Both the position numbers and the translations under genes were made by a program. Positions 1-16,493 of a DNA stretch of 64,000 nucleotides are shown piece by piece; position 1 is the stretch's first letter, and every line of letters begins with the position of its first letter. This DNA is from Candidatus Nezhaarchaeales archaeon (GTDB lineage: Archaea > Thermoproteota > Methanomethylicia > Nezhaarchaeales > WYZ-LMO8). The stretch is taken from the NCBI GenBank assembly GCA_038887515.1, contig JAWAKK010000001.1:576001-640000 (forward strand), given 5' to 3'. The notes under the pieces are model-generated. The model did no database searches. It saw only the letters and a list, made by a program, of their open reading frames with translations, and was not told the origin of the DNA.

Positions 1-38
1 AAAGTGGAAAGATTAATGTAGTGCTTTATTTTTAAATA

Positions 39-968: not shown

Positions 969-1038
969 AACCTAATCCCCCTCGACCCTCTACGAGGTAC
1001 TTCCATATTTAAGTTTTAAGCGGCATTTAACTTCAACA

Positions 1039-1923
1039 TTAAGCCCAGACGGTTACTCCTCCGTCCACCAGCAGGACTTGTCCAGTTACAAAGTTCGAAG
1101 CATCGGAAGCGAAGAATATTATAGCGCCGACGACGTCGTCGGGAACTGCCCATCTGCCAAGCAGTATGCGTGACTTCATAGTCTGAGATAACTGCGGGTT
1201 CTTCGGTATATGTGCTGTGAGCGGGGTCAGCACGACCGTAGGCGCTACGGCATTTACTTGGATATTGTACTTGGCCCACTCGGTGGCTAGCTGCCTCGTT
1301 AAACCCACGACCGCCGCCTTACTGGTGCAGTAGGCCACGTAGTTGCCCGGTAGACCAAAGAATGACCTCACGGAGGCTATGTTAATTATCTTGCCCCTCC
1401 TCTGCTTTATCATTACCTTGCCTACTTCTCTACAAGTCAAGAATACTCCCGTAACGTTAGTTTCTATGACTGAGTGCCAGTTGTTGAGTGGATACTCCTC
1501 GGCTGGATTTGATGGTATATTTATTCCCGCAAACGTAATCAGTACATCTATTCTACCGTAAGCGTCCACGACTTGTTGGGCCAATCTCTTAACATCGTCC
1601 TCCTTAGTTACGTCAGCCTGAACCGTAGTAGCTTCTCCTCCAACCTCTCTTACCATGTCTATAGTTTCCTTCAGTTTCTCCAAGTTTCTGCCCACTAGAA
1701 CTACCTTAGCTCCAAAGTCTGTTAGGGCGAGAGCTGTAGGTGTACCAAGACCTCCAGCGCCCCCAGTTATAACTGCAACTTTACCCGTCAAGTCGAATAG
1801 CTTCTTGTAATACAATTGCTTCTTTTTGACTCTCTCGGCCAAGAATTGTTGGTAGGCTTCGTACGACTCAGATATCTTAAACCAGTCGACCTTACTCCAA
1901 CTAAATTCCTCCGCCAAAGCCAT
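1039..1923 (-). CDS. SDR oxidoreductase (likely NADPH-dependent); candidate phloroglucinol reductase
   Basis: TGGAGGLG Rossmann motif, GRN after beta-2, YCTSK catalytic motif, FVTGQVLLVDGG C-terminus, ~35-aa N-terminal extension. Confidence 0.9.
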   Translation of the reverse strand: MALAEEFSWSKVDWFKISESYEAYQQFLAERVKKKQLYYKKLFDLTGKVAVITGGAGGLGTPTALALTDFGAKVVLVGRNLEKLKETIDMVREVGGEATTVQADVTKEDDVKRLAQQVVDAYGRIDVLITFAGINIPSNPAEEYPLNNWHSVIETNVTGVFLTCREVGKVMIKQRRGKIINIASVRSFFGLPGNYVAYCTSKAAVVGLTRQLATEWAKYNIQVNAVAPTVVLTPLTAHIPKNPQLSQTMKSRILLGRWAVPDDVVGAIIFFASDASNFVTGQVLLVDGGVTVWA

Positions 1924-1929
1924 ACACCT

Positions 1930-2286
1930 CTAGTCGGGGTAACTTACTACTACTAGCATTGAGGCCGGCATATTGGTCTCATTAATTATCCTCCGCTTAA
2001 CGCCGGAGGGAATGTATATTGAGTCCATAGGACCCAGCGTGTATTTATTGCCCTCCTCATCGATGACTGTTATCGCCCCCGAAAGGACGAAGTAAACCCG
2101 TTCAGGTCCTGAATCCATTTCAGCGCCGCCGCCTGGCAGGAAGTGGGAAAGCCCTACCCAGAACTTTTGGGTGCCAGTAGTATCTCTACTGTGGAGTCTC
2201 AAAGCAACCATGTTGAAGTGCTTTGGTGCCTCGTATGGCTTTACGTCCTTTAACTCCACCTTCTTAATCTTGCTCATTAATATCAC
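1930..2286 (-). CDS. Cupin domain protein
   Basis: FLPGGGAE...ERVYFVLSG...GPMDSIYIPSG cupin signature; operonic with the SDR and cyclase. Confidence 0.85.
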   Translation of the reverse strand: MILMSKIKKVELKDVKPYEAPKHFNMVALRLHSRDTTGTQKFWVGLSHFLPGGGAEMDSGPERVYFVLSGAITVIDEEGNKYTLGPMDSIYIPSGVKRRIINETNMPASMLVVVSYPD

Positions 2287-2566
2287 CCTTCTTCAAGTTA
2301 AAGGGGTCCCCTAGAATTTTTAAGTTTTATTTTCCTCGATAGCTGCGCGCGGAAGACTTTCCATGGTAGGTTTAAGGCCGTAGGCAAAGTCTCCGCGTAA
2401 GTATTGAATGTTAGATGCTCAGTAAAGTGGAGATCACGCCTTGTAAGTGTACTTTCATCGGGTATGCCAAGGTCCTTAGCTAGTACGCAAAGAAAGGCAA
2501 TAGAATAATAGGAGAAATTTTTTAACTCTTCACGACTTCAAAGGTGTAGCAATTGAGCTAAAAGGG

Positions 2567-3625
2567 GTGGCAAAATTGCCGTTTCATGGCGAATATAAAG
2601 ACTTAGAGGTAATTGATGAAGGTCAAGGAGAACTTCTAAACTGGATGGATCCAGAGGACTTTCGGGAGTGGGTGCGCAAAAACAAAGATACGTCGCTTGT
2701 CGAAAAAGTCATGGACCCCAAGGAGGCCGTAAAAAAATTCATCAATGATGGTACTTACATAGCCTTAGGAGGATTCGGCCAAGTTCGAGTACCAATGGCC
2801 TTAATATACGAAATTATCAGGCAGGGCAAGAGAAACCTAGTAGCTTCAGGGAAGACGTCAACCCACGATCTCGATGTACTGATAGCGGCTGGATGCGTCA
2901 GTAAAGTGGAGGCCTCATATCTTTCAGCCGGCCACGAGCTAAGAGGGCTCTCGCCCGCAACTCGTAGAGCTGTTGAAAGCGGCCGCGTTAAGGTTGCAGC
3001 TGAATGGAGCAATGCAGCTCTTCAGTGGAGGTTTAAGGCTGCTGCTAACGGGTTACCGTGGATACCATCCTTTATACTCATGGGAACCGACACCTTTAGG
3101 CGAAGCGCTGCGAAAATAGTTAGGGATCCATTCACCAAAAGGGCCATATGTTTAATACCTGCATGCTTCCCTGACGTTGCCATCATCCACGTACATAGAT
3201 GTGATGTGTACGGTAACAGCCAGATAGACGGCATAACAATCATGGACTGCGAGCTCGCTAGGGCTGCGAAGAGGGTTATTATAACGACTGAGAAGATAAT
3301 ACCTCACGAGAAGATACGCGAAGAGCCATGGCGTACAGTAATTCCATTCTTTGTAGTAGATGCAGTCGTCGAAGTGCCGTTCGGTAGCCATCCCTGTAAC
3401 ATGCCGACGCTCTATTACTACGATGAAGAGCAAATGGGCGAATACCTAAACCTTACGAGAACTGAGGAGGGCACAAAGGCTTACTTTGAGAAGTATGTCT
3501 ATAGCGTTTCGGACCATTACGAATATTTGGAGAAGGTTGGAGGCGTGAAGAAGCTAATGCGATTAATTATGCTTGAACAAGGTAGAATACCGTTTGAGTA
3601 CCCGTGGGTTGCGGCTAAGAGGTGA
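2567..3625 (+). CDS. Family I CoA-transferase subunit A (glutaconate CoA-transferase-like)
   Basis: DGTYIALGGF, PDVAIIHVHRCDVYGN, VDAVVEVPFGSHP motifs. Confidence 0.88.
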   Translation: MAKLPFHGEYKDLEVIDEGQGELLNWMDPEDFREWVRKNKDTSLVEKVMDPKEAVKKFINDGTYIALGGFGQVRVPMALIYEIIRQGKRNLVASGKTSTHDLDVLIAAGCVSKVEASYLSAGHELRGLSPATRRAVESGRVKVAAEWSNAALQWRFKAAANGLPWIPSFILMGTDTFRRSAAKIVRDPFTKRAICLIPACFPDVAIIHVHRCDVYGNSQIDGITIMDCELARAAKRVIITTEKIIPHEKIREEPWRTVIPFFVVDAVVEVPFGSHPCNMPTLYYYDEEQMGEYLNLTRTEEGTKAYFEKYVYSVSDHYEYLEKVGGVKKLMRLIMLEQGRIPFEYPWVAAKR

Positions 3626-3629
3626 TGGT

Positions 3630-4409
3630 ATGAGTGGAGAACTTAAGTATACTAGGATGGAGCAGATGATTATAGCCTCGGCAAAGATGCTAGAGAACGG
3701 AAAAATAGTTTTCGTTGGCACCGGGATGCCCCTACTAGCAGCTATGGTTGCAAAAGCACTTTACTCTCCAAAGCTAGTGCTCCTTTTCGAAGCTGGAGGT
3801 ATAGATCCGCTTCCTGGACCAACGTTACCCATTAGTGTTGGAGACTCCATGACTACATGGAAGGCTAGCGCTGCGTTAAGCATGGATTACGTAATGACGT
3901 TGGCACAAGCAGGATTCATAGAGTACGGAATGTTAGGCGCGGCTCAAATAGACATGTACGGCAACATTAATACGACGGTTATAGGTCCTTGGGAAAGACC
4001 CAAAGTAAGGTTTCCCGGTAGCGGAGGAGCTAACGATATTGGATCACTTTGTTGGAGAACTATAGTCATAATGAGACAGGATAAGACTAAGTTCGTTGAA
4101 AAGCTTGATTTCCTTACAACCCCAGGCTATTTCAATGGCCCTGGAGCTAGGGAGAGAAACGGTCTGCCTAGAAACACAGGCCCGTGGAGGGTCGTAACTC
4201 AGCTCGGCGTTTACAGCTTCGACGAGAAGGACAAGAGAATGACGTTGCTAGCGGTATACCCCGGCGTTAGCCTTGAGGAGATAAAGGAGAATAGCGGCTT
4301 CCCCATAAAAATACCGGAAAAAATTGAGGTGCTCCCGGAGCCGACTGCCGAAGAGTTAAGGGTTCTGAGAAAACTAGATCCTTACGGCCTTGTCCTTGGT
4401 AAGGGCTAA
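3630..4409 (+). CDS. Family I CoA-transferase subunit B (glutaconate CoA-transferase-like)
   Basis: VFVGTGMP, catalytic Glu in LLFEAG, LGAAQIDMYGNINTT, PGSGGANDI. Start moved to ATG 3630 after a GGTG RBS. Confidence 0.88.
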   Translation: MSGELKYTRMEQMIIASAKMLENGKIVFVGTGMPLLAAMVAKALYSPKLVLLFEAGGIDPLPGPTLPISVGDSMTTWKASAALSMDYVMTLAQAGFIEYGMLGAAQIDMYGNINTTVIGPWERPKVRFPGSGGANDIGSLCWRTIVIMRQDKTKFVEKLDFLTTPGYFNGPGARERNGLPRNTGPWRVVTQLGVYSFDEKDKRMTLLAVYPGVSLEEIKENSGFPIKIPEKIEVLPEPTAEELRVLRKLDPYGLVLGKG

Positions 4410-4548
4410 CTTAACCTCCTCTACGAGTTTTATTCTTTTCCCCTTTTATTAGGTAACCCTCTCGTAGGTAAGATACTTATATTACTGGAAGAAGTCTTGA
4501 GAAAGGTTAAAAAACTTCAACGTTCGTTGTATGCTTTGGTGAGCGTTA

Positions 4549-5505
4549 ATGTCTTGGAACTATAATGATATGCAGGAATGGATTAGGAGGGTGAGGAGAG
4601 GGGAGCTACCTCCCCTGATAATAACTGTCGCGATAACTGGAGGAATACAGGGAAAAGAGGTCACTCCTTACCTTCCTGAAAGCCCCGAAGAGCAAGCTCA
4701 ACAAGCATACGAAGCGTATAAGGCAGGTGCATCAATAGTACACATTCACGTTAGGGATCCGAAGACTGGCTACGCAACTCCGACAGCCGACCCGGCCCAG
4801 ATAAGGCTCGTGAACAAAAAGGTTAGAGAGCTATGTCCCGACATAATAATTAACAATTCAACTGGCATAGGCTTATTCACGTCTCTTGAAGAGAGGCTTA
4901 AAGTGCTCGAAGCAGATCCCGAAATAGCTTCGCTTAACGTTGGGCCTGTTGCCTGGAGAACCCTACTTAAGAAGAGGGAGCCCGTGAGGACGCAAGACGT
5001 ACAGGTAGACCTTACGTGGCCTCCGAACTTCACTTGGAGGGAGGCGGAAGTATTAGCTAAGAGGATGTTAGAGAAGAACGTAAAGCCTGAGTTCGAAGTC
5101 TATCAGCAAGGACACTTCCACGTGGTATATCATCTCATCGAAAACAACTTAACCAAAGAGCCGCACATCGTTCAACTAGTACTTGGAGTTACGGGTGGAG
5201 AGCTACCCCATTATAAGAACCTGATAAACATGGTGGAGCATCTACCTCCGAATAGCTTTCCGTTCGTAGTTGGAATAGGTCCATTCCAAGCATACCTAAC
5301 CACTATGGCTATAGTCATGGGCCTTCACGTCAGAGTGGGCCTCGAAGACAACATATTCTACCGTAAAGGAGAGCTGGCAAAGAGTAACGCCCAATTAGTT
5401 GAGCGAGTAGTAAAGATAGCCAACGAGATAGGGAGACCCATAGCGACCCCCGATGAAGCTAGAAAGATGCTTGGACTACCTAAAGAACCTAAGCAATACG
5501 ACTAA
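4549..5505 (+). CDS. Beta-keto acid cleavage enzyme (BKACE/Kce, DUF849); candidate triacetate acetoacetate-lyase
   Basis: IITVAITG, HIHVRD (Zn), KPEFEVY, RVGLEDN, ATPDEARKMLGL. Confidence 0.9.
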   Translation: MSWNYNDMQEWIRRVRRGELPPLIITVAITGGIQGKEVTPYLPESPEEQAQQAYEAYKAGASIVHIHVRDPKTGYATPTADPAQIRLVNKKVRELCPDIIINNSTGIGLFTSLEERLKVLEADPEIASLNVGPVAWRTLLKKREPVRTQDVQVDLTWPPNFTWREAEVLAKRMLEKNVKPEFEVYQQGHFHVVYHLIENNLTKEPHIVQLVLGVTGGELPHYKNLINMVEHLPPNSFPFVVGIGPFQAYLTTMAIVMGLHVRVGLEDNIFYRKGELAKSNAQLVERVVKIANEIGRPIATPDEARKMLGLPKEPKQYD

Positions 5506-5584
5506 CGGCTAACAATTTGAAGGCGATAAGCTTATGGGGCTTCTACGATAGCGCGTATTAAGGGACTTAATGGAGGGATAATAG

Positions 5585-6547
5585 TTGAATAAAGTTAACA
5601 TAAGGAAAGTAGCAGTATTGGGAGCCGGAACCATGGGTCATGGTATAGCTCAAGTTTGTGCTCAGAGCGGTTACGAAACCGTAATGGTAGCTACTAAGCC
5701 AGAGAGTCTGGCGAGAGCCCTAAACAATATCAAGAAGGATCTCGAAGTCTTCGTAAAGAAGAACCTCATAAATCGAGAGGACGTCGACAGAATAGTTTCA
5801 AGGATAACTATCGAGTTAAGCGTAGCAAAGGCCGTGAGAGAGGCAGATTTCGTGATCGAAAGCGTTGTAGAGGACTTGGAGGTTAAGAGAAAGATATTCA
5901 AGGAGGTTGACGATAACGCGCCTCCCCACGCGATCCTGGGCACCAATACGTCCACTATAAGCATAACTGAGCTTGCTAAAGTCACTCGTAGGCCCCAGAT
6001 GGTCTTAGGGGTGCACTTCTGGAACCCGCCGCACCTCATGCCATTAGTTGAGATAGTTAAGACCGAGTACACATCGGATGAAGCCGTCGAGGTCGCAAGA
6101 GCGTTTATCGAAGATCTAGGAAAAGTCCCAGTTCTATGTAAGAAAGAGGCTCCAGGCTACCTTGGAGTTAGGCTCCAGGCAGCCATAGTCCTAGAGGCTA
6201 CTAGGATGCTTGAAGAAGGCGTAGCCTCAGCTGAAGATATAGATATAGCGGTTAAGATGACTCTAGGATTGAGGTATCCTCTATTTGGACCACTACAGGT
6301 GGTCGATTTAGGAGGTGTAGACGTCTTCTACTACGCTTACAGCTACTTGTATAACGCAACTAAAGAGGAGCGGTTTAAACCGCCGAAGATCCTTAAAGAG
6401 CTTGTTGAAAAGGGCAAGCTCGGAGTAAAGAGCTACGAGGGCTTTTACAAGTACACTCCAGAGCAAGTAGAAAAGATAGTAAAGCTCAGAGACGAGTGGT
6501 TAATAGACCAACTCATAAGCAGAGGCCTACTAAAAATAAAGAAGTAA
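5585..6547 (+). CDS. 3-hydroxyacyl-CoA dehydrogenase family protein; candidate 3-hydroxy-5-oxohexanoate dehydrogenase
   Basis: GAGTMGHGIA, ESVVEDLEVK, TNTSTI, HFWNPPHLMPLVE, GKLGVKSYEGFY. Confidence 0.9.
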   Translation: MNKVNIRKVAVLGAGTMGHGIAQVCAQSGYETVMVATKPESLARALNNIKKDLEVFVKKNLINREDVDRIVSRITIELSVAKAVREADFVIESVVEDLEVKRKIFKEVDDNAPPHAILGTNTSTISITELAKVTRRPQMVLGVHFWNPPHLMPLVEIVKTEYTSDEAVEVARAFIEDLGKVPVLCKKEAPGYLGVRLQAAIVLEATRMLEEGVASAEDIDIAVKMTLGLRYPLFGPLQVVDLGGVDVFYYAYSYLYNATKEERFKPPKILKELVEKGKLGVKSYEGFYKYTPEQVEKIVKLRDEWLIDQLISRGLLKIKK

Positions 6548-6816
6548 ATAACAACTTAGCTATCTTCTACACCCTTTTTTTATCAAGCTAGCGAAGCTCT
6601 CCTAAAATTCGGTTTTTACGTACATTGCTTGCATTCTAAAAGCCTACTTAAAGCTATTTAGCAATCCTATCTTCCGTTCCCGCAGGAAATACCGAGAGTT
6701 TCTACGCGTTTAGAGAGTCGAGGACCATACGAATGAGAACAGTTATCGAAGTGAATTCTAGCGACTATTTTTAAAGAAGTTAGGCTTGTTTTGTCGTATA
6801 TCGTAGTTAGCCGTCG

Positions 6817-7527
6817 TCAGCTTACGCCGACACTTATATACCTTATCATATCCGCGACTTCCTCACATCTATCAACTGAGTTCTCTACTTCATCGACTAT
6901 TTCCTTCGCTATAGCACACCATTTCGGCCCCTTCTCATCACACTTCGATAACACGTACTCTAAAAGAGCGGTTCTAATGTCGTCGACTTCTTCTTCAATG
7001 CGCTCTATCATGTCAGCAGTGGTAAGAGCTTTTCGAGGGTTGTCCGACATCTCTTTAAACGCTTGGTCTATCAGCATCATAGCCTCACGTAGCTTCAACG
7101 CCATGTTCAACAGTTTTGAAATGTACTCCTCGTCGAAGTAGACACCTATACGCGTCGAAATAAGCAATCTTCTAGCAGCCGCCTTAGAATAGTCAGCAAC
7201 GTCGTCCAACCTTAGTACGAGCCTCATTATGTAGTCTCTGTCTAGAGGCAGTAAGGTAGCCTTCGACAAGTCGTATATAAAGTTCCTCTTGGCTTCATCA
7301 GCCCTACGCTCGGCCTTCAATACTTCGGAGAACGTTGAGCTCGCGTCGTCAAACCGCCTTTCCTCTATCGCCTTAAGCATTGAAATTAGACCTTCAATAA
7401 CTTTCGTTACCTCAACGCCGTGCTCTATGCACTTAGACACTATACCCTTTTCAACTTTTTTAGATGCCCATATCCAAGTTGACACTAAGACCACCGTAAG
7501 GCACGTTCTTAGCTTTCCTCCCTGCAT
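6817..7527 (-). CDS. DUF47/PhoU-like phosphate transport regulator
   Basis: ERRADEAKR, LPLDRDYI, LDDVAD, EEEVDDI repeats; lies downstream of PiT. True start is probably ~50 nt downstream of 7527. Confidence 0.85.
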   Translation of the reverse strand: MQGGKLRTCLTVVLVSTWIWASKKVEKGIVSKCIEHGVEVTKVIEGLISMLKAIEERRFDDASSTFSEVLKAERRADEAKRNFIYDLSKATLLPLDRDYIMRLVLRLDDVADYSKAAARRLLISTRIGVYFDEEYISKLLNMALKLREAMMLIDQAFKEMSDNPRKALTTADMIERIEEEVDDIRTALLEYVLSKCDEKGPKWCAIAKEIVDEVENSVDRCEEVADMIRYISVGVS

Positions 7528-7546
7528 TTATATACTTTGTTGTTTG

Positions 7547-8608
7547 TTAAATTGACAATCGTATCAAGGAGTGAGCGAAAAGGCAGAGACATGAAGCTAT
7601 CCCCATCGTTACCGGGACGGTTAAAAGCCACGACATTATTATGTAACCAGTTACCTTCATGTTTAATCCCCGTAAGCACCTAGCCTTCGCTATTCCGGCA
7701 CCAATTATCGCCGACACACTTGTGTGAGTTGTCGAAATTGGCATGCCAAACCCCCAGAGCATGTAGGGTATAGTCGTGAATAACCATACAGTTAAAGCTA
7801 ATGAGAAGCCCGCCGCAACCCCGCTTGGATTATCTAACCTAGTTATTCTAAACGCGGTGGTCTCCACCACTCTTCTCCCCAAAGTGAAGCCACCTATGGC
7901 AATGAATGTGCCTCCCATAAGAGATAAGAGCAACATTGTTTCGTGCGTTGGTAACCCGAATTGTCTCTCTGTTATAGTTAAGTACACTCCAGTAGCATTA
8001 GCTACGTCATTCGCTCCGAAGGAATAGGCGGCAAACGCCAAGGAAACTATGTGAAGCGCTAGGAATATCTTTTCAACGTCGCGTTTCACCCTAAGAGATA
8101 ACTCGAGTTTTAGGAAGAGAAAGTACAGGAGGACGGCTAGACTCATGGCTATGGCTGGCGATGTTACCCAACTTAGTATGATCCTCGTCATGACGCTCCA
8201 ATTTATTTCATCAAATTTAATGGAGCCTATTACAGCGTACGCTATACCTACCCCCAATATTGACCCCGTTACGCTCTGCGAAGTCGAAATGGGCAAACCG
8301 AGAAGAGTTGCAGTAAGTATCCATACGCCGGCCGCTACGACCGCTATTAGGGCGGCAACTATATCTATCTGAGGTACAATCCCCCTACCTAAGGTCTTAA
8401 TTACGTAGCTCCCTTGGAGCAGGGCCCCAATGATAGTGAACATGGAGAATAGCAGGAGAGCCCTCCTTAATGTTAAGGCCCCGGCACCTACAGCGGTATC
8501 TATCGGGTTCGCAGCATCGTTAGCTCCTATATTGAAGGCCATGAAGGCTGACGCTGCCACTCCAATGATATAAAGTATTAGTTCTATCATCTCTTCCACA
8601 TTTCTCAT
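7547..8608 (-). CDS. pit: PiT family inorganic phosphate transporter
   Basis: Two GANDxAN signatures and PISTSQ / PISTTH motifs. Confidence 0.92.
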   Translation of the reverse strand: MRNVEEMIELILYIIGVAASAFMAFNIGANDAANPIDTAVGAGALTLRRALLLFSMFTIIGALLQGSYVIKTLGRGIVPQIDIVAALIAVVAAGVWILTATLLGLPISTSQSVTGSILGVGIAYAVIGSIKFDEINWSVMTRIILSWVTSPAIAMSLAVLLYFLFLKLELSLRVKRDVEKIFLALHIVSLAFAAYSFGANDVANATGVYLTITERQFGLPTHETMLLLSLMGGTFIAIGGFTLGRRVVETTAFRITRLDNPSGVAAGFSLALTVWLFTTIPYMLWGFGMPISTTHTSVSAIIGAGIAKARCLRGLNMKVTGYIIMSWLLTVPVTMGIASCLCLFAHSLIRLSI

Positions 8609-8792
8609 GCTTCACTTTATAACGCTTACTAGCCAGCATGGAAATTTGTAGTGTGCGGTAGGTACATGATGACTGCGCATAGCGATAGGTTTTGCTAGAC
8701 AATAGGAGTAGTCCAGCGCGACAAGGGACTTATTACGTGCAAATAGAAACGCCTTTAAGCCTAGACGGAAAAAAAGGCATAACGATGTAAAA

Positions 8793-9815
8793 ATGGAAAT
8801 TTATGACTTTGAAGCCCACTTCTATACGAAAGATTACGTTAAAGCTCTGCTTAAAAACAAGGCTTATCCAAGATATAAGAAAGATGAGAAGCAAGATATC
8901 TATTGGCTTTTATATACGCCTAGCGTCCAAGAACCCCACGTAGGAGCGTTGCTTGAAAAGCTCCTCAACGTAGAGGAGAAGAGAATACATGATATGAGGG
9001 AGGCCGGCATAAAAGTTCAGATCCTAAGTCTCTCGGCACCTGGATGTGAGCAGCTAGGACCTAAGTTAGGTTCTAGGATGGCTAGGAAGGTCAACGACGA
9101 ACTCTCGAGGATCGTTGAGAAAAACCCCGACAGATTCATTGGGCTCGCAGCCCTCGCACCTCAAAGTCCCCAAGAAGCTGCGGAAGAGCTTGAGAGGGCT
9201 GTTAAGGATCTCGGACTTAAGGGTTGGAAGACCCACTCCAACATACGTGGTGAGTACCTAGACAACGAGAAGTTCTGGCCTATACTAGAGAGAACTGAGA
9301 GGCTTCGTGTACCAATATTTCTGCATCCTACCGTCCCGAGGATAAAACAACTCGGAGAACCCTACGGGTACGCAATGGCTGGTCCAGCCTTTGGTTTCGT
9401 TTTTGAGACTGCTATGTGCTTAATGAGATTAATACTGAGCGGCGTCTTCGATAAGTTCCCTAACCTAAAGTTCGTGCTAGGGCACCTTGGAGAGGCCATG
9501 CCGTTTCTCATCAACCGTATAGACTTTCCTCGCGTGAGGCCATGGGTCTACGAAAGCATGGACGTAAAAATATCGAAGAAGCCCAGCGAGTACTTGAAGA
9601 ATAATGTGTTTATACTTACGAGCGGCGAATTCCCCGTACCAGCAATATCCTGCGCCATAGAGATAATGGGCTTAGACAGGGTTCTCTTCGGTTCAGACTA
9701 TCCCTACGAAAACTCTGTAGATGCTGTGAAGCGCATTGAAGCTCTACCTCTCTCAAAGGAGGAAAAAGAGAAGATATACTCTCAAAACGCTAAATCGCTC
9801 CTAGGTATACGTTGA
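8793..9815 (+). CDS. Amidohydrolase-2 family non-oxidative aromatic acid decarboxylase (gamma-resorcylate/2,3-DHBA decarboxylase-like)
   Basis: DFEAH, FLHP, LILSGVFDKFPNLKFVLGHLGEAMPF, FGSDYPYE. Confidence 0.85.
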   Translation: MEIYDFEAHFYTKDYVKALLKNKAYPRYKKDEKQDIYWLLYTPSVQEPHVGALLEKLLNVEEKRIHDMREAGIKVQILSLSAPGCEQLGPKLGSRMARKVNDELSRIVEKNPDRFIGLAALAPQSPQEAAEELERAVKDLGLKGWKTHSNIRGEYLDNEKFWPILERTERLRVPIFLHPTVPRIKQLGEPYGYAMAGPAFGFVFETAMCLMRLILSGVFDKFPNLKFVLGHLGEAMPFLINRIDFPRVRPWVYESMDVKISKKPSEYLKNNVFILTSGEFPVPAISCAIEIMGLDRVLFGSDYPYENSVDAVKRIEALPLSKEEKEKIYSQNAKSLLGIR

Positions 9816-9896
9816 GGCGAGGCCCATAATCTCTGAAGAGTTAATGTCAACTGAAAGCTTAAAGCATAGGTCAAGAAACCAATATTAGCTAAAAAG

Positions 9897-11768
9897 GTGG
9901 TAGCATTGGTTTATGGTTATGCTGGTAAGATACTCTACATAGATCTAACGACCAAAGAAAGCTGGGTCAAAGCTCTCGATGTAGATTACGTCTATCCCGT
10001 AATCGGTGGAGCTGGGCTTGGAATAAAGATACTCATGGACGAGGTCAACCCGAAAGTTGAACCACTATCCCCTGAGAACAAACTGATCTTTGCTGTAGGT
10101 CCACTAACAGGATCCTTAGCCCCCTGTACAAGTAGGATGGCTGTCGTATCTAAATCACCCTTAACAGGCGCAGTTGGAATGTCGCTTAGTGGCGGGTACT
10201 TCCCAGCTGAACTCAAGTTCGCCGGTTATGATGCTATCGTAATATCGGGGAAAGCAGATGGACCGTCGTACATATGGATATACGACGATAAAGTGACCAT
10301 AGGAGATGCATCAGGAATCTGGGGCTTATCGACGACCGATACCCAAATAATATTGAGGGAAAAACTGAATCAACCTGAAGCTAAAGTAGCATGTATAGGA
10401 CCGGCTGGTGAAAGACTAGTACGATACGCATGCATAATAAACGAGAGGAGGGCGGCAGGAAGAAAGGGTCTAGGCGCTGTCATGGGTTCTAAGAACCTTA
10501 AGGCGATAGCTGTGAGGGGGACGAAAAAAGTTGAAGTTGCCGACCAAGAGAAGTTCAGAAAAGCTGTCAAGAGGATGTACGACTTAATGAAGGAAAGCCC
10601 TGTTCTCTACCCCTCTTTCTCGAAGATGGGGACACCTATGACTGTTGAGGTTACGGCCGAGCTTGGAATACTTCCAGCTAAAAACTGGACTGCTACTGGC
10701 CTGTTCGCCCCAGTTGAAACTCTTGGTGGAGAGGCACAAACTTATTACACCATCACCCGTATGGGTTGCTACAATTGTCCCGTAAGGTGCGGACAGGTAA
10801 AGGTTGTTAAAAGCGGTCCCTTCGCCGGCTTTATGACTGAAGGGCCTGAGTTCGAGACCACATATAGCCTTGGAACCATGGTCGGTGTCAGCTACCTGCC
10901 GGCTGTAATAGCTGCCGACAGGCTATGCGACGAATACGGCTTAGATACCATATCCACTGGAGTATGCATAGCTTTTGCGATGGAGCTCGTCGAAAAAGGT
11001 ATACTGTCGGCGGATGAGGTCGACGGTATGGACCTTAGATTCGGCAACTACGAAACCGTGGTAAAGATGATTAGAAAGATAGCCTTCAGAGAAGGGTTTG
11101 GAAACATACTTGCCGAGGGGGTTAAGCGTGCCTCAGAACTCATTGGAAGAGGCTCGGAGAGGTATGCACTTCACGTTAAAGGTCTTGAGCTACCTGGTTA
11201 TGACGTTAGAGGAGCTAAAGCGCACGGCCTAAGTTACGCTACTGCCTATACTGGAGCAGATCACAATAGGGGTTACTCTATACAAGAGATATTCAGTGTC
11301 CCAGTACCTTACAAAGTGGATAGGCTAGCGATAGAAGGTAAAGGAAAGCTTTGCAAGTGGAACCAGGACGTTAGGACTGCCGTCTGCGACTGCATGCCGC
11401 TCTGCGTGTTTCCGTTCGACATGGGGCTCGCAGCCAACGCCTTAGAGCTGATGTCAGAGCTCTACACAGCCTTAACCGGTTTATCCATGACGCCGGAGGA
11501 AGTCCAGAAAACTGGAGAAAGAGTCGTCAACATAGCTAGGGTATTTAACTTTAAGGCTGGCTTTACGAGAGCTGACGACACTCTCCCAGCGAGAGTCATG
11601 AAGGAGGGCATACCTGGAGGGGCATCGAAAGGACAAGTGATAACTCGAGAAGACCTGAATAAGATGCTAGACGAGTATTACGAAGCTCGAGGTTGGGATA
11701 AGGAGAAGGGCATACCAACTAAAGAAAAGATGGTTGAACTTGGCCTACCAATTGAGTGGCTAGCTTGA
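9897..11768 (+). CDS. aor: Tungsten-dependent aldehyde:ferredoxin oxidoreductase family
   Basis: GYAGKILYIDL, KSPLTG, GAVMGSKNLKA, CYNCPVRC, EGPEFET, DEYGLDTIS, YYEARGWD. Confidence 0.93.
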   Translation: MVALVYGYAGKILYIDLTTKESWVKALDVDYVYPVIGGAGLGIKILMDEVNPKVEPLSPENKLIFAVGPLTGSLAPCTSRMAVVSKSPLTGAVGMSLSGGYFPAELKFAGYDAIVISGKADGPSYIWIYDDKVTIGDASGIWGLSTTDTQIILREKLNQPEAKVACIGPAGERLVRYACIINERRAAGRKGLGAVMGSKNLKAIAVRGTKKVEVADQEKFRKAVKRMYDLMKESPVLYPSFSKMGTPMTVEVTAELGILPAKNWTATGLFAPVETLGGEAQTYYTITRMGCYNCPVRCGQVKVVKSGPFAGFMTEGPEFETTYSLGTMVGVSYLPAVIAADRLCDEYGLDTISTGVCIAFAMELVEKGILSADEVDGMDLRFGNYETVVKMIRKIAFREGFGNILAEGVKRASELIGRGSERYALHVKGLELPGYDVRGAKAHGLSYATAYTGADHNRGYSIQEIFSVPVPYKVDRLAIEGKGKLCKWNQDVRTAVCDCMPLCVFPFDMGLAANALELMSELYTALTGLSMTPEEVQKTGERVVNIARVFNFKAGFTRADDTLPARVMKEGIPGGASKGQVITREDLNKMLDEYYEARGWDKEKGIPTKEKMVELGLPIEWLA

Positions 11769-11778
11769 CCTAGATCTC

Positions 11779-12423
11779 CTACTTCTCCTTTTTAATTTCA
11801 TATATGAACGGTAAGATGACGGCTAGGTTCCTCATCTCCTCAACGCAGTGCTGAAACAGTCCCTTAGCCATCTCATAGCTCGCATACTTCGGGTTAAGCC
11901 AGAACCTGCTCCTCATCTCGCATCCTACATCCCTGTCTCTGACGAAGTGAGTCATGAAGCCCGTTTCGACCTCTCCATCTGCTCCTCGAAAGTATATTCG
12001 AGCACAGACCGCAGTAGCTTTTGCTTGCTCGAGCTTAGCTGGATTGAAGTATTGCGAGGGATCCTGAAAGTGTATCCTGAGCTTAGCTACTGGGGGTTTG
12101 CCCCCCAGAGTCTCGTCAACTATGTGGCTTGCTCCAATGTAGCTTCCAGGGCTCCACTTGTCGTCCCACGCACCGTATATGTGGTCAACTGGATGCCAAA
12201 GCTTGTAGACCTCAGTATGCTCCTTAGGAGATAGACCATAAGCGAACCACCACTCAATCATTCTCCTATTGCAGAGAGGCATTCTCGTAAGCACTGCTAC
12301 TAAGTAATAGCCATCAGGTAGACGAACGTACCCGCTCTCTAAAGGCAGGTAGCCGGGCTCTAAAAGTCTACCTATTTCTTCAAGCCGCAACCCAAGACTC
12401 TCCAACAATTCATAGACCTCCAC
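11779..12423 (-). CDS. PhlG / phloretin hydrolase family C-C hydrolase
   Basis: LESGYVRLPDG, MIEWWF, YKLWHPVDH, EMRSRFW, HCVEEMRNLA (Zn ligands) characteristic of DAPG/phloretin hydrolases. Confidence 0.85.
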   Translation of the reverse strand: MEVYELLESLGLRLEEIGRLLEPGYLPLESGYVRLPDGYYLVAVLTRMPLCNRRMIEWWFAYGLSPKEHTEVYKLWHPVDHIYGAWDDKWSPGSYIGASHIVDETLGGKPPVAKLRIHFQDPSQYFNPAKLEQAKATAVCARIYFRGADGEVETGFMTHFVRDRDVGCEMRSRFWLNPKYASYEMAKGLFQHCVEEMRNLAVILPFIYEIKKEK

Positions 12424-12522
12424 AAATTCTAATTACTTTCAACTCCTCGATATTATCATCGTAATCTATTTAAATTTAGCTCGAGTAATTATTTTAACTA
12501 GCAAGCAAACTATATACAACAT

Positions 12523-13881
12523 ATGGTGGAAAAATTGGAGAAGAAAGAAGGCGTTGGGTTAACGAAAGTCCAAGCGATAGCGATAGTGGTCGTTGTCGTC
12601 GTTATTGTTGCGGGCGTTGCCGCCTACTTCTTAACCCTACCTCCACCAGGTCCAGCTGCCCCCGAGTACATAAAGATCGGCTGGCCAGCTCCAATAACTG
12701 GGGGCATAGCAGCCTTTGCTGAGACTACGCCTTGGATGGTCGAGCAAGTTGAAAAGTATGTTAACAACGTTATGGGCGGCGTTTACTTAGCTGAGTACGG
12801 TAAGAAGGTCCCGATAAAGATCATCTTGAGGGATATTAAGAGCGATTCAGATGCTGCTGCTTCAGTTGCTGCTGAGCTAATAACTAGAGAGAACGTAGAC
12901 TTAATGTTGGCCCTATACTCTCCAGCCATGACTAACCCGATAAGCGCCCAATGTGAGAGGTACGGAGTCCCATGTATTGTCTCCCAAACTATAATAGTTT
13001 CGTGGTTAATGGGAGGCCCCTACACTTGGTCATATTGTATTGGGCTAGCAGAACCAGACTACGCTGTACTATTCTTCGACCTCTTCGATACCATTAAAGA
13101 CAAGACAAATAAAGTTGTTGCTCTGATAAATTCTGATGATCCCGACGGTAGAGCTACTGCGGCTGCCTGGAAGGCACAAGCTGAGAAGCGAGGATATACG
13201 ATAGTGGATCTTGGCCTAATACCCTACGGTACGAAAGATTTCAGCACGTACGTGGAAGCATGCAAGAAGGCCGGAGCAGACATACTTACAGGCAACATGA
13301 TTCCCACGGACTTCGCATCATTCTGGAGGCAATGCAACGAGATGAGTTACAAGCCGAAGCTCGTGGCGATGGCTAGGTCCCTCCTGTTCCCATCGTGGGT
13401 AGCTGCTCTAGGCGGCGACTTAGGGAATGGATTAGTCGGATACATTTGGTGGACGCCCTACCATCCATACGAGTCTTCGTTAACGGGACAGACTCCTCAA
13501 GACCTATGCCAAGCTTGGGAGACCTACTCTGGCAAACAGTGGACTCCTGTTTTAGGGATGACTCACGCGGTACTTGAAGTTGCGGTTAAAGCGATCGAGA
13601 AGGCTGGAAGTCTCGATAAGGCCAAGATAAGGGATGCGTTAGCCAACATAGACTTAAACACTATAGTTGGACGCGTCAACTTCAAGGCTCCTCTAACGTC
13701 TAGCCAGCAAGCGAGGTATCAAGCATTTGAGAACATGATTAAATACAAGGATCACTACGTCGTCGTACCACCAGTCGCAATTCAGTGGGTTAAGGTAGGG
13801 GAACGCTGGGATCCAGTAATAATTTACAATTGGGAGAGTCCAGATATCCCTGTTACAGGTAAGCTTTTCTTACTGAACTGA
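12523..13881 (+). CDS. ABC-type solute-binding protein (LivJ/PBP1 family) with N-terminal membrane anchor
   Basis: N-terminal TM helix and Pro-rich linker, IKIGWPAPITG, RDIKSD, AIEKAGSLDKAKIRDAL. Confidence 0.85.
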   Translation: MVEKLEKKEGVGLTKVQAIAIVVVVVVIVAGVAAYFLTLPPPGPAAPEYIKIGWPAPITGGIAAFAETTPWMVEQVEKYVNNVMGGVYLAEYGKKVPIKIILRDIKSDSDAAASVAAELITRENVDLMLALYSPAMTNPISAQCERYGVPCIVSQTIIVSWLMGGPYTWSYCIGLAEPDYAVLFFDLFDTIKDKTNKVVALINSDDPDGRATAAAWKAQAEKRGYTIVDLGLIPYGTKDFSTYVEACKKAGADILTGNMIPTDFASFWRQCNEMSYKPKLVAMARSLLFPSWVAALGGDLGNGLVGYIWWTPYHPYESSLTGQTPQDLCQAWETYSGKQWTPVLGMTHAVLEVAVKAIEKAGSLDKAKIRDALANIDLNTIVGRVNFKAPLTSSQQARYQAFENMIKYKDHYVVVPPVAIQWVKVGERWDPVIIYNWESPDIPVTGKLFLLN

Positions 13882-13899: not shown

Positions 13900-14516
13900 T
13901 CATCTTACCTTCAACTTTTTTATGTTTTTAATTAAGCTTCTAGAGGAAGTGATCCATCCAAACATGTTACTTATATTCCAGAGAGATGACCTTCTAGCGC
14001 AGTTAGGTCCTATAGCTTCGCAGCAGTCTGATACAACTATTGGCCAGAACTCTCTAAAGAAGGCGTCTCGAACCGTTGATTCCACGCATATGTTTAACGC
14101 TATCCCCACGAAAAAAGAGGTACTTGACCTTAAGCTGTTTGAGTACCTCCTCAAGCTTTGTATTTACGAACCCGCTGTACCTCTGCTTGTTGATTACGAT
14201 GTCTCCTGCTAAAGGTTTAACTTCATCGATTATCTCGGGATTCAGGTCCACCGGCGTCGGATAGATCTTGCGAGTATACGTGCCTGACGTAGATTATCTT
14301 TAACCCTGCCTCCCTCCAAGAAGCTAAAACTCTCTTAACTGGTTCAATTATTCTCCGAAGCCTTGAAATGTCGAATCCCAATATGTCAAACATACCGCCA
14401 TAGCTTAAGAAGGCTTTCTGCATGTCAACAACTATTAAGCAGGACCTCGTTAAATCCACGGTCACAGGGCTTGGTTTTGCCGGAAGCCTAATCAAATTAG
14501 GCATTTTTACCACCAA
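13900..14516 (-). pseudogene. RutB-like isochorismatase/cysteine hydrolase pseudogene
   Basis: Three consecutive frames give LIVVDMQ...DAGGPES / EIIDEVKP...KQRYSGF...YLFF / VGIALNICVESTVRDAFFREF...MFGW. Internal deletion near 14237 and frameshift at the A6 run 14111-14116. Confidence 0.85.
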
Positions 14517-14588: not shown

Positions 14589-14876
14589 TTGATAACCGTC
14601 AAGGTACGGCCCCTCTTCAACCTAAAGAGAATTATAGGTTCGAGCGAGTTGACGCTGAAGCTGAAAGAGGGATCCACGATAAGAGACTTAATTTATGTGC
14701 TAGTTGAACGCTATGGGGATGAGCTTGAGAAGCTTCTCTTAAAGGGAGGAGATGAAGGCAAAAGGAACATAGCCATTTTTGTTAACGGTAGGCTTATAGA
14801 TTTCATAGATGGCGACGCTACGAGGCTTTCCGACGGCGACGTGGTTTCCATGATACCCCCGGCTGGAGGAGGTTAA
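14589..14876 (+). CDS. MoaD/SAMP ubiquitin-like sulfur carrier
   Basis: Beta-grasp pattern IFVNGR...LSDGDVVSMIPPAGGG with C-terminal GG; near AOR. Confidence 0.9.
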   Translation: MITVKVRPLFNLKRIIGSSELTLKLKEGSTIRDLIYVLVERYGDELEKLLLKGGDEGKRNIAIFVNGRLIDFIDGDATRLSDGDVVSMIPPAGGG

Positions 14877-14972: not shown

Positions 14973-16493
14973 TTGCTTAAGCTTAAAGGCGATGTATTTA
15001 AGGATGTTATTGAAAAAGATCGAGACGTATACAAATTTAAGACCTTCTTAGCTGGTGACTGGGTTAGCGGCGAAGAAAGCGTTGAAGTGAGGAGCCCCAT
15101 AGATCTCAGCGTGATAGCTAGAGTTCCAAAGCTGACGTTCGATGAAGCTGAAAGGACCTTGGACGTCGTATATAAAGCTGGTAGGTGGAAGATCAGGGAC
15201 GTGCCGGGGTGGAGAAGGCTTGATATGCTAGAAAGGTTGGCTGACCTAATGGAGGAGTACAGCGAAGACCTCGTAGAGACATTAATAGTCAACACCGGAA
15301 AGACTGGGCCCCAAGCGATTGGTGAAGTAAATGCTTCAATAGATAGGCTTAGAAGAGCCGACTTAGATGCTAGGAAGATATTCGGTGAGTACATACCAGG
15401 CGACTGGGATCAGACAACCATGGAGACGGAGGCAACCATAAGGAGAGAGCCCCTCGGAGTTGTCTTGGCCATTGTGCCTTTCAACTACCCGCTCTTCGAT
15501 TCAGCCGCTAAGTTCGCCTACAGCATTGTGGCTGGAAACGCCGTAATGATAAAGCCTCCATCGGCAGACCCGCTACCAGTCTTACTATTCGCAAGACTAA
15601 TTGAAGAGGCCGGGTTCCCCAAAGAATCCTTTGCTGTCCTAACCCTACCAGGCGGGGAGAGCGGTAGACTCGTAGCAGACGAAAGAATCCACGTAATCAG
15701 CTTTACTGGAAGTAGCGAGACCGGCAAAAAAGTGCTAGCTGCAGCTGGGATAAAGCAGTTCGTAATGGAGCTTGGCGGGGGAGACCCAGCAATAGTCTTA
15801 GAGGACTCCAACCTAGAGCTAGCCGCAGAAAGGATAGCTGCGGGAATATATAGCTACGCTGGACAGAGGTGCGACGCGATAAAGCTCGTCATCGTAGAGG
15901 AGAGCATATACGACGAGTTTAAGAGAAAGTTGGCGAAGGAGCTAGCTAAAGTAGTCGTAGGAGACCCTAGGGATGGCATAACGGTCATGGGCCCGCTGAT
16001 AAGTCCGGATGCTGTAGATAGGATGCTCAATGCAGTTGAAGAAGCAGTAAGTAGGGGAGGAACCGTAGTCTACGGTGGCAGGAGGCTTGGATCGACGTAC
16101 GTGGAGCCGACATTAGTGGAGTTCCTCAATAAGAGTTCCTTAAAGGATTTAAGACTATATAGGGAGGAAGTCTTCGCCCCCGTAGCGTTGATCACGAGCT
16201 TCAAGGAATTGGATGAAGCAGTAGATTTAGCGAATGGTAGAAGGTACGGGTTGGACGTATCCATATTTGGCTTCAACATAGAGAGGCTAAGGAGGCTCAT
16301 TAGGTTCCTCGAGTTTGGAGCCATATACGTAAACGACATGCCTAGGCACGGAGTCGGCTACTACCCCTTCGGAGGTAGAAAGGAATCTGGGATTGGGAGG
16401 GAAGGAATAGGCTACTCGATAGAGTACGTGACGGCCTACAAGACCATAGTCTTCAACTTTAGAGGTATGAGAATTTGGAAGTACGCTGGGTAG
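14973..16493 (+). CDS. gapN: Non-phosphorylating NADP-dependent glyceraldehyde-3-phosphate dehydrogenase
   Basis: ALDH fold; IFGEYIPGDW, PFNYPLFD, MELGGGDP, YAGQRCDAIK typical of archaeal GAPN. Confidence 0.92.
   Translation: MLKLKGDVFKDVIEKDRDVYKFKTFLAGDWVSGEESVEVRSPIDLSVIARVPKLTFDEAERTLDVVYKAGRWKIRDVPGWRRLDMLERLADLMEEYSEDLVETLIVNTGKTGPQAIGEVNASIDRLRRADLDARKIFGEYIPGDWDQTTMETEATIRREPLGVVLAIVPFNYPLFDSAAKFAYSIVAGNAVMIKPPSADPLPVLLFARLIEEAGFPKESFAVLTLPGGESGRLVADERIHVISFTGSSETGKKVLAAAGIKQFVMELGGGDPAIVLEDSNLELAAERIAAGIYSYAGQRCDAIKLVIVEESIYDEFKRKLAKELAKVVVGDPRDGITVMGPLISPDAVDRMLNAVEEAVSRGGTVVYGGRRLGSTYVEPTLVEFLNKSSLKDLRLYREEVFAPVALITSFKELDEAVDLANGRRYGLDVSIFGFNIERLRRLIRFLEFGAIYVNDMPRHGVGYYPFGGRKESGIGREGIGYSIEYVTAYKTIVFNFRGMRIWKYAG

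Follow-up and report, generated by a model that had tools for sequence, protein, structure and literature searches.

Phloroglucinol is a hub for the anaerobic mineralisation of flavonoids and tannins, and the pathway that opens its ring was solved only in 2023. To our knowledge, the enzymes that deliver substituted phloroglucinols to this hub are known in only a few cases, namely phloretin hydrolase, gallate decarboxylase and transhydroxylase. Pelobacter acidigallici, which ferments trihydroxybenzenes, was reportedly found by Schink and Pfennig in 1982 to grow on 2,4,6-trihydroxybenzoate. Here, we analysed a 64,000-nucleotide stretch of the genome of a Candidatus Nezhaarchaeales archaeon (contig JAWAKK010000001.1, positions 576,001 to 640,000), hereafter called the window, in which three consecutive genes, encoding a decarboxylase-type amidohydrolase, a tungsten-type aldehyde oxidoreductase (AOR) and a short relative of PhlG and phloretin hydrolase (the PhlG-like protein), accompany a cluster of the phloroglucinol type. 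We propose, with a probability of roughly 0.55, that all three proteins are functional and belong to a peripheral module, gained by horizontal transfer, which supplies the adjacent pathway with phloroglucinol.

The cluster described in C. scatologenes comprises PGR, DPGC, TfD and TAL, according to the part of that account available here (Zhou et al, 2023; PMC10470551). The window has, beside the trio, the same four enzyme families and a CoA transferase; beyond these come a cupin, the AOR, the decarboxylase and the minimal hydrolase, and the host is an archaeon. Two elements of this picture are already in print, since the available part of the same source lists DAPG_hydrolase in Mycobacterium phloroglucinol clusters and names Archaeoglobus, as the sole archaeal carrier, for the phloroglucinol cluster (PMC10470551). 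As in the trihydroxybenzene fermentation of P. acidigallici, the genome analysed here also encodes a Pelobacter-like transhydroxylase. Our searches of the open literature yielded no connection between phloroglucinol catabolism and either an AOR or an Amidohydro_2 decarboxylase (the supplementary clusters of Zhou et al, 2023 may include relatives), no part played by an AOR in the breakdown of polyphenols, no paper on a phloroglucinol pathway in Nezhaarchaeota or Bathyarchaeia, and none joining trihydroxybenzoate with resorcylate decarboxylase, or phloroglucinol carboxylic acid with an amidohydrolase decarboxylase.

Three enzyme genes and their conserved sites

Positions 8793–12423 of the window contain exactly three intact open reading frames (ORFs), whose limits and families agree with those given in a preliminary description of this DNA, as judged from the ORF list, Pfam and matches to solved structures. 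The first (8793..9815, + strand) encodes a 340-aa decarboxylase-type Amidohydro_2 protein of the ACMSD superfamily (P0001; Pfam Amidohydro_2, 1.1e-44), the second (9897..11768, + strand) a 623-aa tungsten-type AOR sensu stricto (P0002; AFOR_N 5.9e-80, AFOR_C 2.2e-135) and the third (11779..12423, − strand) the 214-aa, one-domain PhlG-like protein (DAPG_hydrolase, 4.4e-47), with Pfam scores far exceeding the gathering cut-offs in all three cases. The AOR gene starts 81 bp downstream of the amidohydrolase gene on the same strand, and the AOR and PhlG-like genes converge, with 10 bp separating their stop codons. None of the three ORFs is interrupted, and each aligns over its whole length with its homologues; together with the conserved sites described below, this makes the genes look functional.

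The PhlG-like protein is the single DAPG_hydrolase (PF18089) match in a scan of the whole genome, scoring 160.9 bits against a cut-off of 22.7 and covering positions 3–223 of the 223-position profile. Among solved structures, the protein alone matches phloretin hydrolase (1.2e-19, 74 bits) and PhlG (1.3e-12, 51 bits), and a profile of 30 homologues reaches 153 bits with phloretin hydrolase (5.7e-44, over the whole domain) and 124 bits with PhlG; by these alignments, phloretin hydrolase is its closest characterised relative, nearer than PhlG. Its identification as a PhlG orthologue was rejected, the NCBIfam PhlG equivalog NF047887 giving 55.8 bits for a cut-off of 600. Four residues, H81, E104, H192 and E196, are invariant in the 30 homologues and fall, in the profile alignment, on PhlG chain positions 137, 168, 278 and 282, which with an offset of 8 match the residues that we take to be the zinc ligands of PhlG (His129, Glu160, His270 and Glu274). 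Compared with the phloretin hydrolase Phy (Eubacterium ramulus; Mycobacterium abscessus, entries 5XE5 and 5XEY), the protein has the same Pfam domain with the four zinc ligands kept, but it is 214 aa long instead of ~280 aa and belongs to a separate archaeal clade, with a stem of 0.89 substitutions per site; the Mycobacterium gene likewise lies among phloroglucinol-pathway genes in the available part of the survey (PMC10470551). Pseudomonas PhlG (3HWP) shares the family and the zinc site, the match being weaker than that to Phy, and here no phl biosynthesis genes are found.

Counted from the GTG at 12423, the PhlG-like protein has 214 aa; with a start at the in-frame TTG at 12408 or 12405 it would have 209 or 208 aa, the length seen in the closest homologues. 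Two pieces of the solved enzymes are absent, some 50 residues at the N terminus and a loop of ~24 residues ahead of the C-terminal helix: the alignment begins at chain residue 54–71 of 5XE5 and 3HWP, and no upstream extension of the ORF is possible. In a library of 1.84 billion proteins the family is small, with 649 clusters at E ≤ 0.001. Of the 150 best cluster representatives, 31 align to fewer than 150 query residues; the other 119 divide into 54 without an N-terminal extension, 54 with one and 11 fusions of at least 350 aa, so that the minimal form is, on the evidence of the homologues, a common natural architecture and no truncation. Fusions of the domain also occur (P0371, P0373, P0408, P0416, P0500, P0397 and P0412), five of them ~470 aa long with an unassigned C-terminal half of ~290 aa, one with an N-terminal metallo-beta-lactamase and one with a C-terminal FAD_binding_4 domain.

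The amidohydrolase is the sole Amidohydro_2 gene of the genome (153.8 bits). Its solved matches are headed by the 5-carboxyvanillate decarboxylase LigW (2.1e-61), gamma-resorcylate decarboxylase (9.9e-52) and 2,3-dihydroxybenzoate decarboxylase (5e-39); the top 14 are all aromatic-acid decarboxylases or unnamed Amidohydro_2 entries, the LigJ hydratase reaching just 3.5e-12, and no NCBIfam model matches at 1e-5. A profile of its clade gives 284.6/280.7 bits with LigW and 265.7/251 bits with gamma-resorcylate decarboxylase. The protein had been called resorcylate-decarboxylase-like, a fair label, although LigW scores slightly higher. Across 29 clade members, H9, H178, H231, D302 and D5 never vary and E7 is kept in at least 90%, the N-terminal Glu-x-His motif, which lies outside the HMMER alignment, having been placed by eye. 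H178, H231 and D302 align to LigW chain positions 210, 263 and 336, the last of which is the D-to-N site of entry 4QS5; the metal and catalytic residues of LigW are presumably Glu19, His188, His241 and Asp314.

The clade is a large one, of ~340-aa proteins of anaerobic archaea and Deltaproteobacteria; among the best 120 of 1256 matches, which are 50–93% identical, no protein is named beyond "amidohydrolase". It shares with LigW and gamma-resorcylate decarboxylase the fold family, the metal and catalytic residues and full-length matches, but these two enzymes belong to aerobic lignin or resorcinol pathways, whereas the context here is anaerobic and linked to phloroglucinol. Decarboxylases of this group bind the carboxylate and the ortho phenolate on the metal and require an ortho hydroxyl. 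Because of this requirement, 2,4,6-trihydroxybenzoate would fit the active site and gallate would be excluded; we rejected gallate as a candidate substrate on this mechanistic ground, its carboxylate having no ortho hydroxyl.

The AOR matches the solved P. furiosus AOR at 1e-148, Aromatoleum aromaticum AOR (8C0Z) at 7.8e-119, FOR at 6e-108 and BamB at 1.8e-78, and obtains 54.8 bits on the GAPOR NCBIfam model, whose cut-off is 1300; on these scores, it is an AOR sensu stricto, rather than FOR, GAPOR or BamB. Its residues C291, C294, C298, C503, E320 and H456 align to P. furiosus C288, C291, C295, C494, E313 and H448, the four cysteines being presumably those of the [4Fe-4S] cluster and E313 and H448 presumably lying near the tungsten. 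Both domains are full-length and the cluster and active-site residues are kept with respect to 1AOR and 8C0Z, but the protein falls in a distinct subclade, whose genes keep synteny with those for PhlG-like proteins and decarboxylases. The genome encodes six AOR paralogues, and the window AOR is 33–45% identical to the other five; in a tree, the module-linked AORs form one clade (SH-aLRT 99) apart from these five. A MoaD-family small protein ending in Gly-Gly (14589..14876, + strand; Pfam ThiS 5.7e-14; NCBIfam moaD_arch 67.3 bits, cut-off 49.5) probably serves the synthesis of the pterin cofactor for the AOR.

Gene neighbourhoods in archaea and bacteria

The window encodes, at 39–6547, all four families of the phloroglucinol pathway, assigned by Pfam: a cyclase (39–968, − strand), an SDR (1039–1923, − strand), a BKACE lyase (4549–5505, + strand) and a 3-hydroxyacyl dehydrogenase (3HCDH; 5585–6547, + strand). 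A 118-aa cupin (1930–2286, − strand) and a CoA-transferase A/B (2567–4409, + strand) complete the core. The cyclase is 49–54% identical to most alphaproteobacterial cluster cyclases and 37–39% identical to two of them, and the BKACE obtains 213 bits on the TAL model NF053538 (cut-off 430). The solved structures available for comparison with the SDR and with the cyclase included neither a phloroglucinol reductase nor a DPGC.

We scanned one genome per prokaryotic species for the PhlG-like gene and, with the window proteins as queries, recorded the neighbours within 10 kb at the best 79 loci (tblastn, E ≤ 1e-8 over at least half of the query). Cyclase genes were found at 34 loci, SDR at 33, cupin at 31, 3HCDH at 35 and BKACE at 23; the binding protein described below was found at 39, the amidohydrolase at 12 and the AOR at 5. 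The controls taken from the same window gave 0 for PHO4, 0 for DUF47, 0 for the CoA-transferase and 2 for GAPN. A DPGC-type cyclase together with BKACE or 3HCDH occurs at 32/79 loci; of the 46 loci that span 15 kb or more, 28 have this combination. The preliminary description had taken the PhlG-like match as independent support for a link to phloroglucinol, to be given up if homologues never occurred with SDR, cyclase or BKACE genes; the co-occurrence at 28 of the 46 long loci bears this link out. Cupin homologues (42–66% identity) accompany the cyclase at these 31 loci in Alphaproteobacteria, Deltaproteobacteria and archaea, and the cupin may be an undescribed accessory of the phloroglucinol cluster, since the available part of the published pathway account has no cupin (PMC10470551).

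The PhlG-like gene stands last in the operon in numerous Alphaproteobacteria, Bradyrhizobium and Rhizobium among them. Eight alphaproteobacterial loci of 20 kb combine it with cyclase, SDR and 3HCDH and have no BKACE within 10 kb. We considered whether the PhlG-like enzyme might stand in for the BKACE lyase; this is unsupported, BKACE genes being present elsewhere in 5/5 of the genomes examined.

The AORs at the five loci where this gene accompanies a PhlG-like gene are 80–82% (two archaeal contigs) or 58–61% (three deltaproteobacterial-type contigs) identical to the window AOR, and on these identities the link of the AOR to PhlG-like loci is rare but specific. One archaeal contig (L003) repeats the layout of the window, with amidohydrolase, AOR and convergent PhlG-like gene, and carries an intact isochorismatase gene. 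A proteobacterial contig (L043) has, on one strand, AOR, isochorismatase, PhlG-like, ThiS/MoaD, amidohydrolase, IclR regulator, ABC transporter, cyclase and cupin genes, and also carries BKACE; its ThiS-like gene is 38% identical to the window MoaD. Two further loci, both from metagenome-assembled genomes (MAGs) labelled Bathyarchaeia, show other combinations. At L002 (3859–11386), the PhlG-like gene is flanked by pyrogallol-hydroxytransferase-like large and beta subunits and the module AOR, as well as by a second, different AOR that is 42% identical to the window AOR. At L004 (672–16190), it lies among two cyclases, a cupin, 3HCDH, an HpaB-type hydroxylase and a luciferase-like oxidoreductase, together with a PFL-like glycyl-radical enzyme gene split into two ORFs.

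A second scan, seeded on the amidohydrolase, covered 80 metagenome loci, 10 of them annotated. At L089, cyclase (85%) and 3HCDH (81%) orthologues are immediate neighbours of an amidohydrolase orthologue (72%); L107 combines the amidohydrolase with cyclase, binding protein, AOR (57%) and ThiS; a PhlG-like gene is present at both L098 and L118, and L092 is a duplicate of L043. The AOR and the amidohydrolase, which had been presented as parts of the same system, are indeed no chance neighbours of the hydrolase and the core, given that the trio recurs in L003 and L043, that the module AORs form a clade of their own and that the amidohydrolase adjoins cyclase and 3HCDH at L089. Among the 10 annotated loci, four (L093, L096, L105 and L108) have a molybdopterin oxidoreductase beside the clade member, L108 having two with a pyrogallol-hydroxytransferase-like domain; TRAP carboxylate transporters occur at L095 and L096, a UbiD decarboxylase at L093, and a zinc alcohol dehydrogenase or a second amidohydrolase is also found. 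From these annotated neighbours, the clade appears tied to anaerobic hydroxy-aromatic acid metabolism in general, and only in part to phloroglucinol genes. In bacterial loci, a second Amidohydro_2 type of 318 aa, 31% identical to P0001 and absent from the window, repeatedly lies immediately upstream of the 340-aa type (L010 3619–4575; L096 6951–7907; L100 6841–7797; L101 3745–4701; L095 3923–4879).

The island, its host and a second polyphenol-type locus

The trio had been described as sitting next to the core cluster, which holds in that the two adjoin, with the qualification that two unrelated genes come in between, a PhoU_div/DUF47 gene (6817–7527, − strand) and a PHO4 phosphate transporter gene (7547–8608, − strand), both assigned by Pfam. 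With 0/79 occurrences at PhlG-like loci, this pair (6817–8608) is intervening and lies outside the system. On the other side, an orphan substrate-binding protein of the Peripla_BP_6 family (Pfam; 12523..13881, + strand) is encoded divergently from the PhlG-like gene, 99 bp away, and has neither a permease nor an ATPase gene beside it; its solved relatives are weak, the best at 3.7e-17, and most of them bind amino acids. Next comes a broken isochorismatase-family (RutB-like) gene (13906..14495, − strand), detected by tblastn with the intact L003 and L043 proteins and as a Pfam fragment, whose pieces lie in three reading frames with ~30 residues missing. The gene is intact in the related modules L003, L043, L100 and L101, and the intact relatives obtain 251–259 bits on the RutB model, under the cut-off of 378. 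Beyond the MoaD gene, an archaeal non-phosphorylating GAPN (14973–16493, + strand; NCBIfam 801.9 bits, cut-off 780) flanks the island; the GAPN query matched in only 1/5 genomes of the same genus or family, and GAPN may also be accessory. The remainder of the window and the 18 kb upstream hold housekeeping or archaellum genes.

In the assembly of a sequencing run that contains this DNA, positions 1–12612 of the window lie on one 32.8-kb contig reaching ~20 kb further upstream. Since this contig spans both the core and the trio, they are physically linked there too; note that the run may be the source of the genome and is not fully independent of it. The assembly of this run breaks inside the binding-protein gene, and the short pieces at window 12583–12906 have a depth of 30–52, compared to 17–20, and include a variant piece with 7 differences, which suggests that this segment is common to a paralogue or to another strain.

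CysRS, a housekeeping protein of the window, shares 70–78% identity with proteins of MAGs named Candidatus Nezhaarchaeales/Nezhaarchaeota. Within the host's class, the PhlG-like gene (E ≤ 1e-10) and the cyclase (E ≤ 1e-20) were each found in 1/62 species genomes, this one only, and the relatives of the amidohydrolase in the 62 genomes are at most 43% identical. The nearest homologues of the island genes come from MAGs labelled Bathyarchaeia (73–82%) and Caldarchaeum, and the next from MAGs of Desulfobacteraceae, Thermodesulfobacteriota and "Deltaproteobacteria" (50–61%). Our tree of PhlG-like proteins has 89 rows: 12 database proteins, the window protein and 76 of the 79 loci, the other three having yielded no ORF that reached 170 aa. 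In it, all seven archaeal rows group together (SH-aLRT 100) within a 17-row clade of anaerobic bacteria (98), which itself lies inside a much larger bacterial radiation. This nesting is in line with a bacterial donor, a possibility that the preliminary description had raised, and the module, on its accessory island, was probably acquired from bacteria by way of other archaea, having spread among hot-spring archaea; the direction of transfer depends on a quick tree search with an assumed root. In the five genomes of the same genus or family, the SIR2 neighbour is 51–57% identical and GAPN is present in 1/5, so that these genomes are too diverged for synteny to set the island borders. The only hint of thermostability is that the sequencing run containing this DNA is labelled hot-springs metagenome; no RNA run is recorded as containing the stretch, and ~3% subsamples of two metatranscriptome runs of the same study gave 0 reads on the stretch, each subsample being too small to tell.

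A second polyphenol-type locus lies ~330 kb from the window (G000:C1:249763–258162, i.e. L169 3763–12162). It encodes two ABC ATPases, two permeases and a binding protein, followed by a pyrogallol hydroxytransferase homologue and its Fe-S beta subunit. The binding protein of this complete ABC operon is 57% identical to the orphan one of the window, and the transhydroxylase is full-length, with 1074.6 bits to the Pelobacter pyrogallol hydroxytransferase (PDB 4v4c). Transhydroxylase homologues occur in 8/62 genomes of the class, all within the host's family, and the window cyclase query gave no match in the other seven.

Proposed reactions and competing explanations

We propose that the module, comprising the amidohydrolase-type decarboxylase, the tungsten AOR, MoaD, the minimal zinc C–C hydrolase, the substrate-binding protein and the now-broken isochorismatase-like hydrolase, would convert ring-substituted phloroglucinols to phloroglucinol, which would enter the reductive pathway of SDR reductase, ring opening by the cyclase, 3HCDH, BKACE and CoA transferase. 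We infer each substrate and each direction of reaction from the enzyme families, the intact residues, the synteny across two domains of life and the transferred island. The PhlG-like protein would hydrolyse the aryl–carbonyl C–C bond of acylphloroglucinols (phloretin, monoacetylphloroglucinol or similar) at its His/Glu/His/Glu zinc site, in the manner of phloretin hydrolase, and an acylphloroglucinol is a somewhat better than even prospect as the substrate. In the amidohydrolase, the metal would chelate the carboxylate and the ortho phenolate of a hydroxybenzoate, from which CO2 would leave; 2,4,6-trihydroxybenzoate is the best-fitting candidate, to which we would assign somewhat less than an even chance. 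The AOR would oxidise the matching aromatic aldehyde to the acid and pass the electrons to ferredoxin, and 2,4,6-trihydroxybenzaldehyde is a tentative and doubtful choice for it. This aldehyde is a product of anthocyanin scission in the part of the source available here, which would provide the AOR with a natural substrate (PMC7792584). A bolder version, which we regard as speculative and on balance unlikely, is that amidohydrolase, AOR and MoaD form an undescribed O2-independent route in which a dedicated AOR subclade acts on aldehydes of the phloroglucinaldehyde type (from the anthocyanin A-ring and formylated phloroglucinols), that the new LigW-like clade is the 2,4,6-trihydroxybenzoate decarboxylase long sought in anaerobic phloroglucinol fermenters, and that, with the minimal hydrolase, they make up a mobile "substituent-stripping" cassette passed from sulfate-reducer-like bacteria to several archaeal lineages.

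Several observations weigh against the delivery of phloroglucinol by this trio. The core is assigned to the pathway at the level of families only, and the PhoU_div and PHO4 genes separate it from the trio. Among the 46 long loci of the PhlG-like gene, 18 have no core gene within 10 kb; an AOR stands next to the PhlG-like gene at only 5/79 loci, and 75 of the 80 amidohydrolase loci, many of them on short contigs, have no cyclase, PhlG-like gene or module AOR. In both the single-sequence and the profile comparison, LigW stands slightly above gamma-resorcylate decarboxylase. As the N-terminal part and the loop of the solved hydrolases are absent, the substrate range of the short protein may differ from theirs. 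According to the available part of one source, PhlG acts specifically on DAPG and its product is MAPG rather than phloroglucinol, so that only a reaction of the phloretin-hydrolase type would feed the pathway (PMC8003664). Finally, the isochorismatase-like member being a pseudogene, the module may be eroding or losing a step here.

The pair of decarboxylase and AOR might instead serve another ortho-hydroxy acid and its aldehyde, such as 2,3,4-trihydroxybenzoate (through pyrogallol to phloroglucinol), beta- or gamma-resorcylate, or the lignin-type 5-carboxyvanillate/vanillin, a reading that is rather unlikely in our estimation and still carries appreciable weight. That LigW is the top solved relative speaks for it, and some annotated loci of the clade hold pyrogallol-transhydroxylase-like enzymes, TRAP, UbiD or a second amidohydrolase without phloroglucinol genes, which leaves room for a different ortho-hydroxybenzoate. 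The genome itself encodes a transhydroxylase with its beta subunit and an ABC transporter, which keeps the 2,3,4-trihydroxybenzoate to pyrogallol to phloroglucinol route open, and at L002 such a transhydroxylase lies directly beside the PhlG-like gene and an AOR. However, the amidohydrolase genes of the window, L003, L043, L089 and L107 go with phloroglucinol-pathway, PhlG-like or AOR genes and not with a transhydroxylase, the transhydroxylase locus of the genome is ~330 kb away, and gallate would be an unlikely member of such a pair for want of an ortho hydroxyl.

Could the AOR be a general-purpose enzyme that merely travels along, oxidising for example the aldehydes of amino-acid fermentation, with no specific tie to the hydrolase or the decarboxylase? 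Six paralogues in one genome, a best solved match to the broad-range P. furiosus enzyme and the small number of AOR-bearing PhlG-like loci would agree with this, yet we hold it to be improbable: a distinct AOR clade has been kept beside PhlG-like and amidohydrolase genes in archaea and Deltaproteobacteria (58–82% identity, versus 33–45% with the host paralogues), and a MoaD gene travels with the AOR in the window, L043 and L107. Equally little credence goes to the possibility that the short PhlG-like protein cleaves another bond of the beta-dicarbonyl type, in a different flavonoid intermediate or in an open-chain one such as 3,5-dioxohexanoate. It would account for the missing N-terminal part and loop of the characterised enzymes and for the eight alphaproteobacterial loci with cyclase, SDR and 3HCDH but no nearby BKACE; against it, BKACE is encoded elsewhere in all five such genomes examined and occurs alongside the PhlG-like gene in the window, no residue of the zinc site has been lost, and no characterised enzyme is closer than phloretin hydrolase.

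If the trio does feed the core pathway, two peripheral reactions would gain their genes, those for an ortho-hydroxybenzoate decarboxylase and for a tungsten enzyme oxidising aromatic aldehydes, and the minimal catalytic form of the PhlG/Phy hydrolase would be defined. The host being a probable thermophile, the three proteins are reasonable candidates for robust C–C hydrolase and (de)carboxylase biocatalysts, as a prospect rather than a finding. For the organism, it would mean that gene transfer has carried polyphenol catabolism into a hot-spring archaeon whose lineage has drawn attention chiefly for methane or alkane metabolism.

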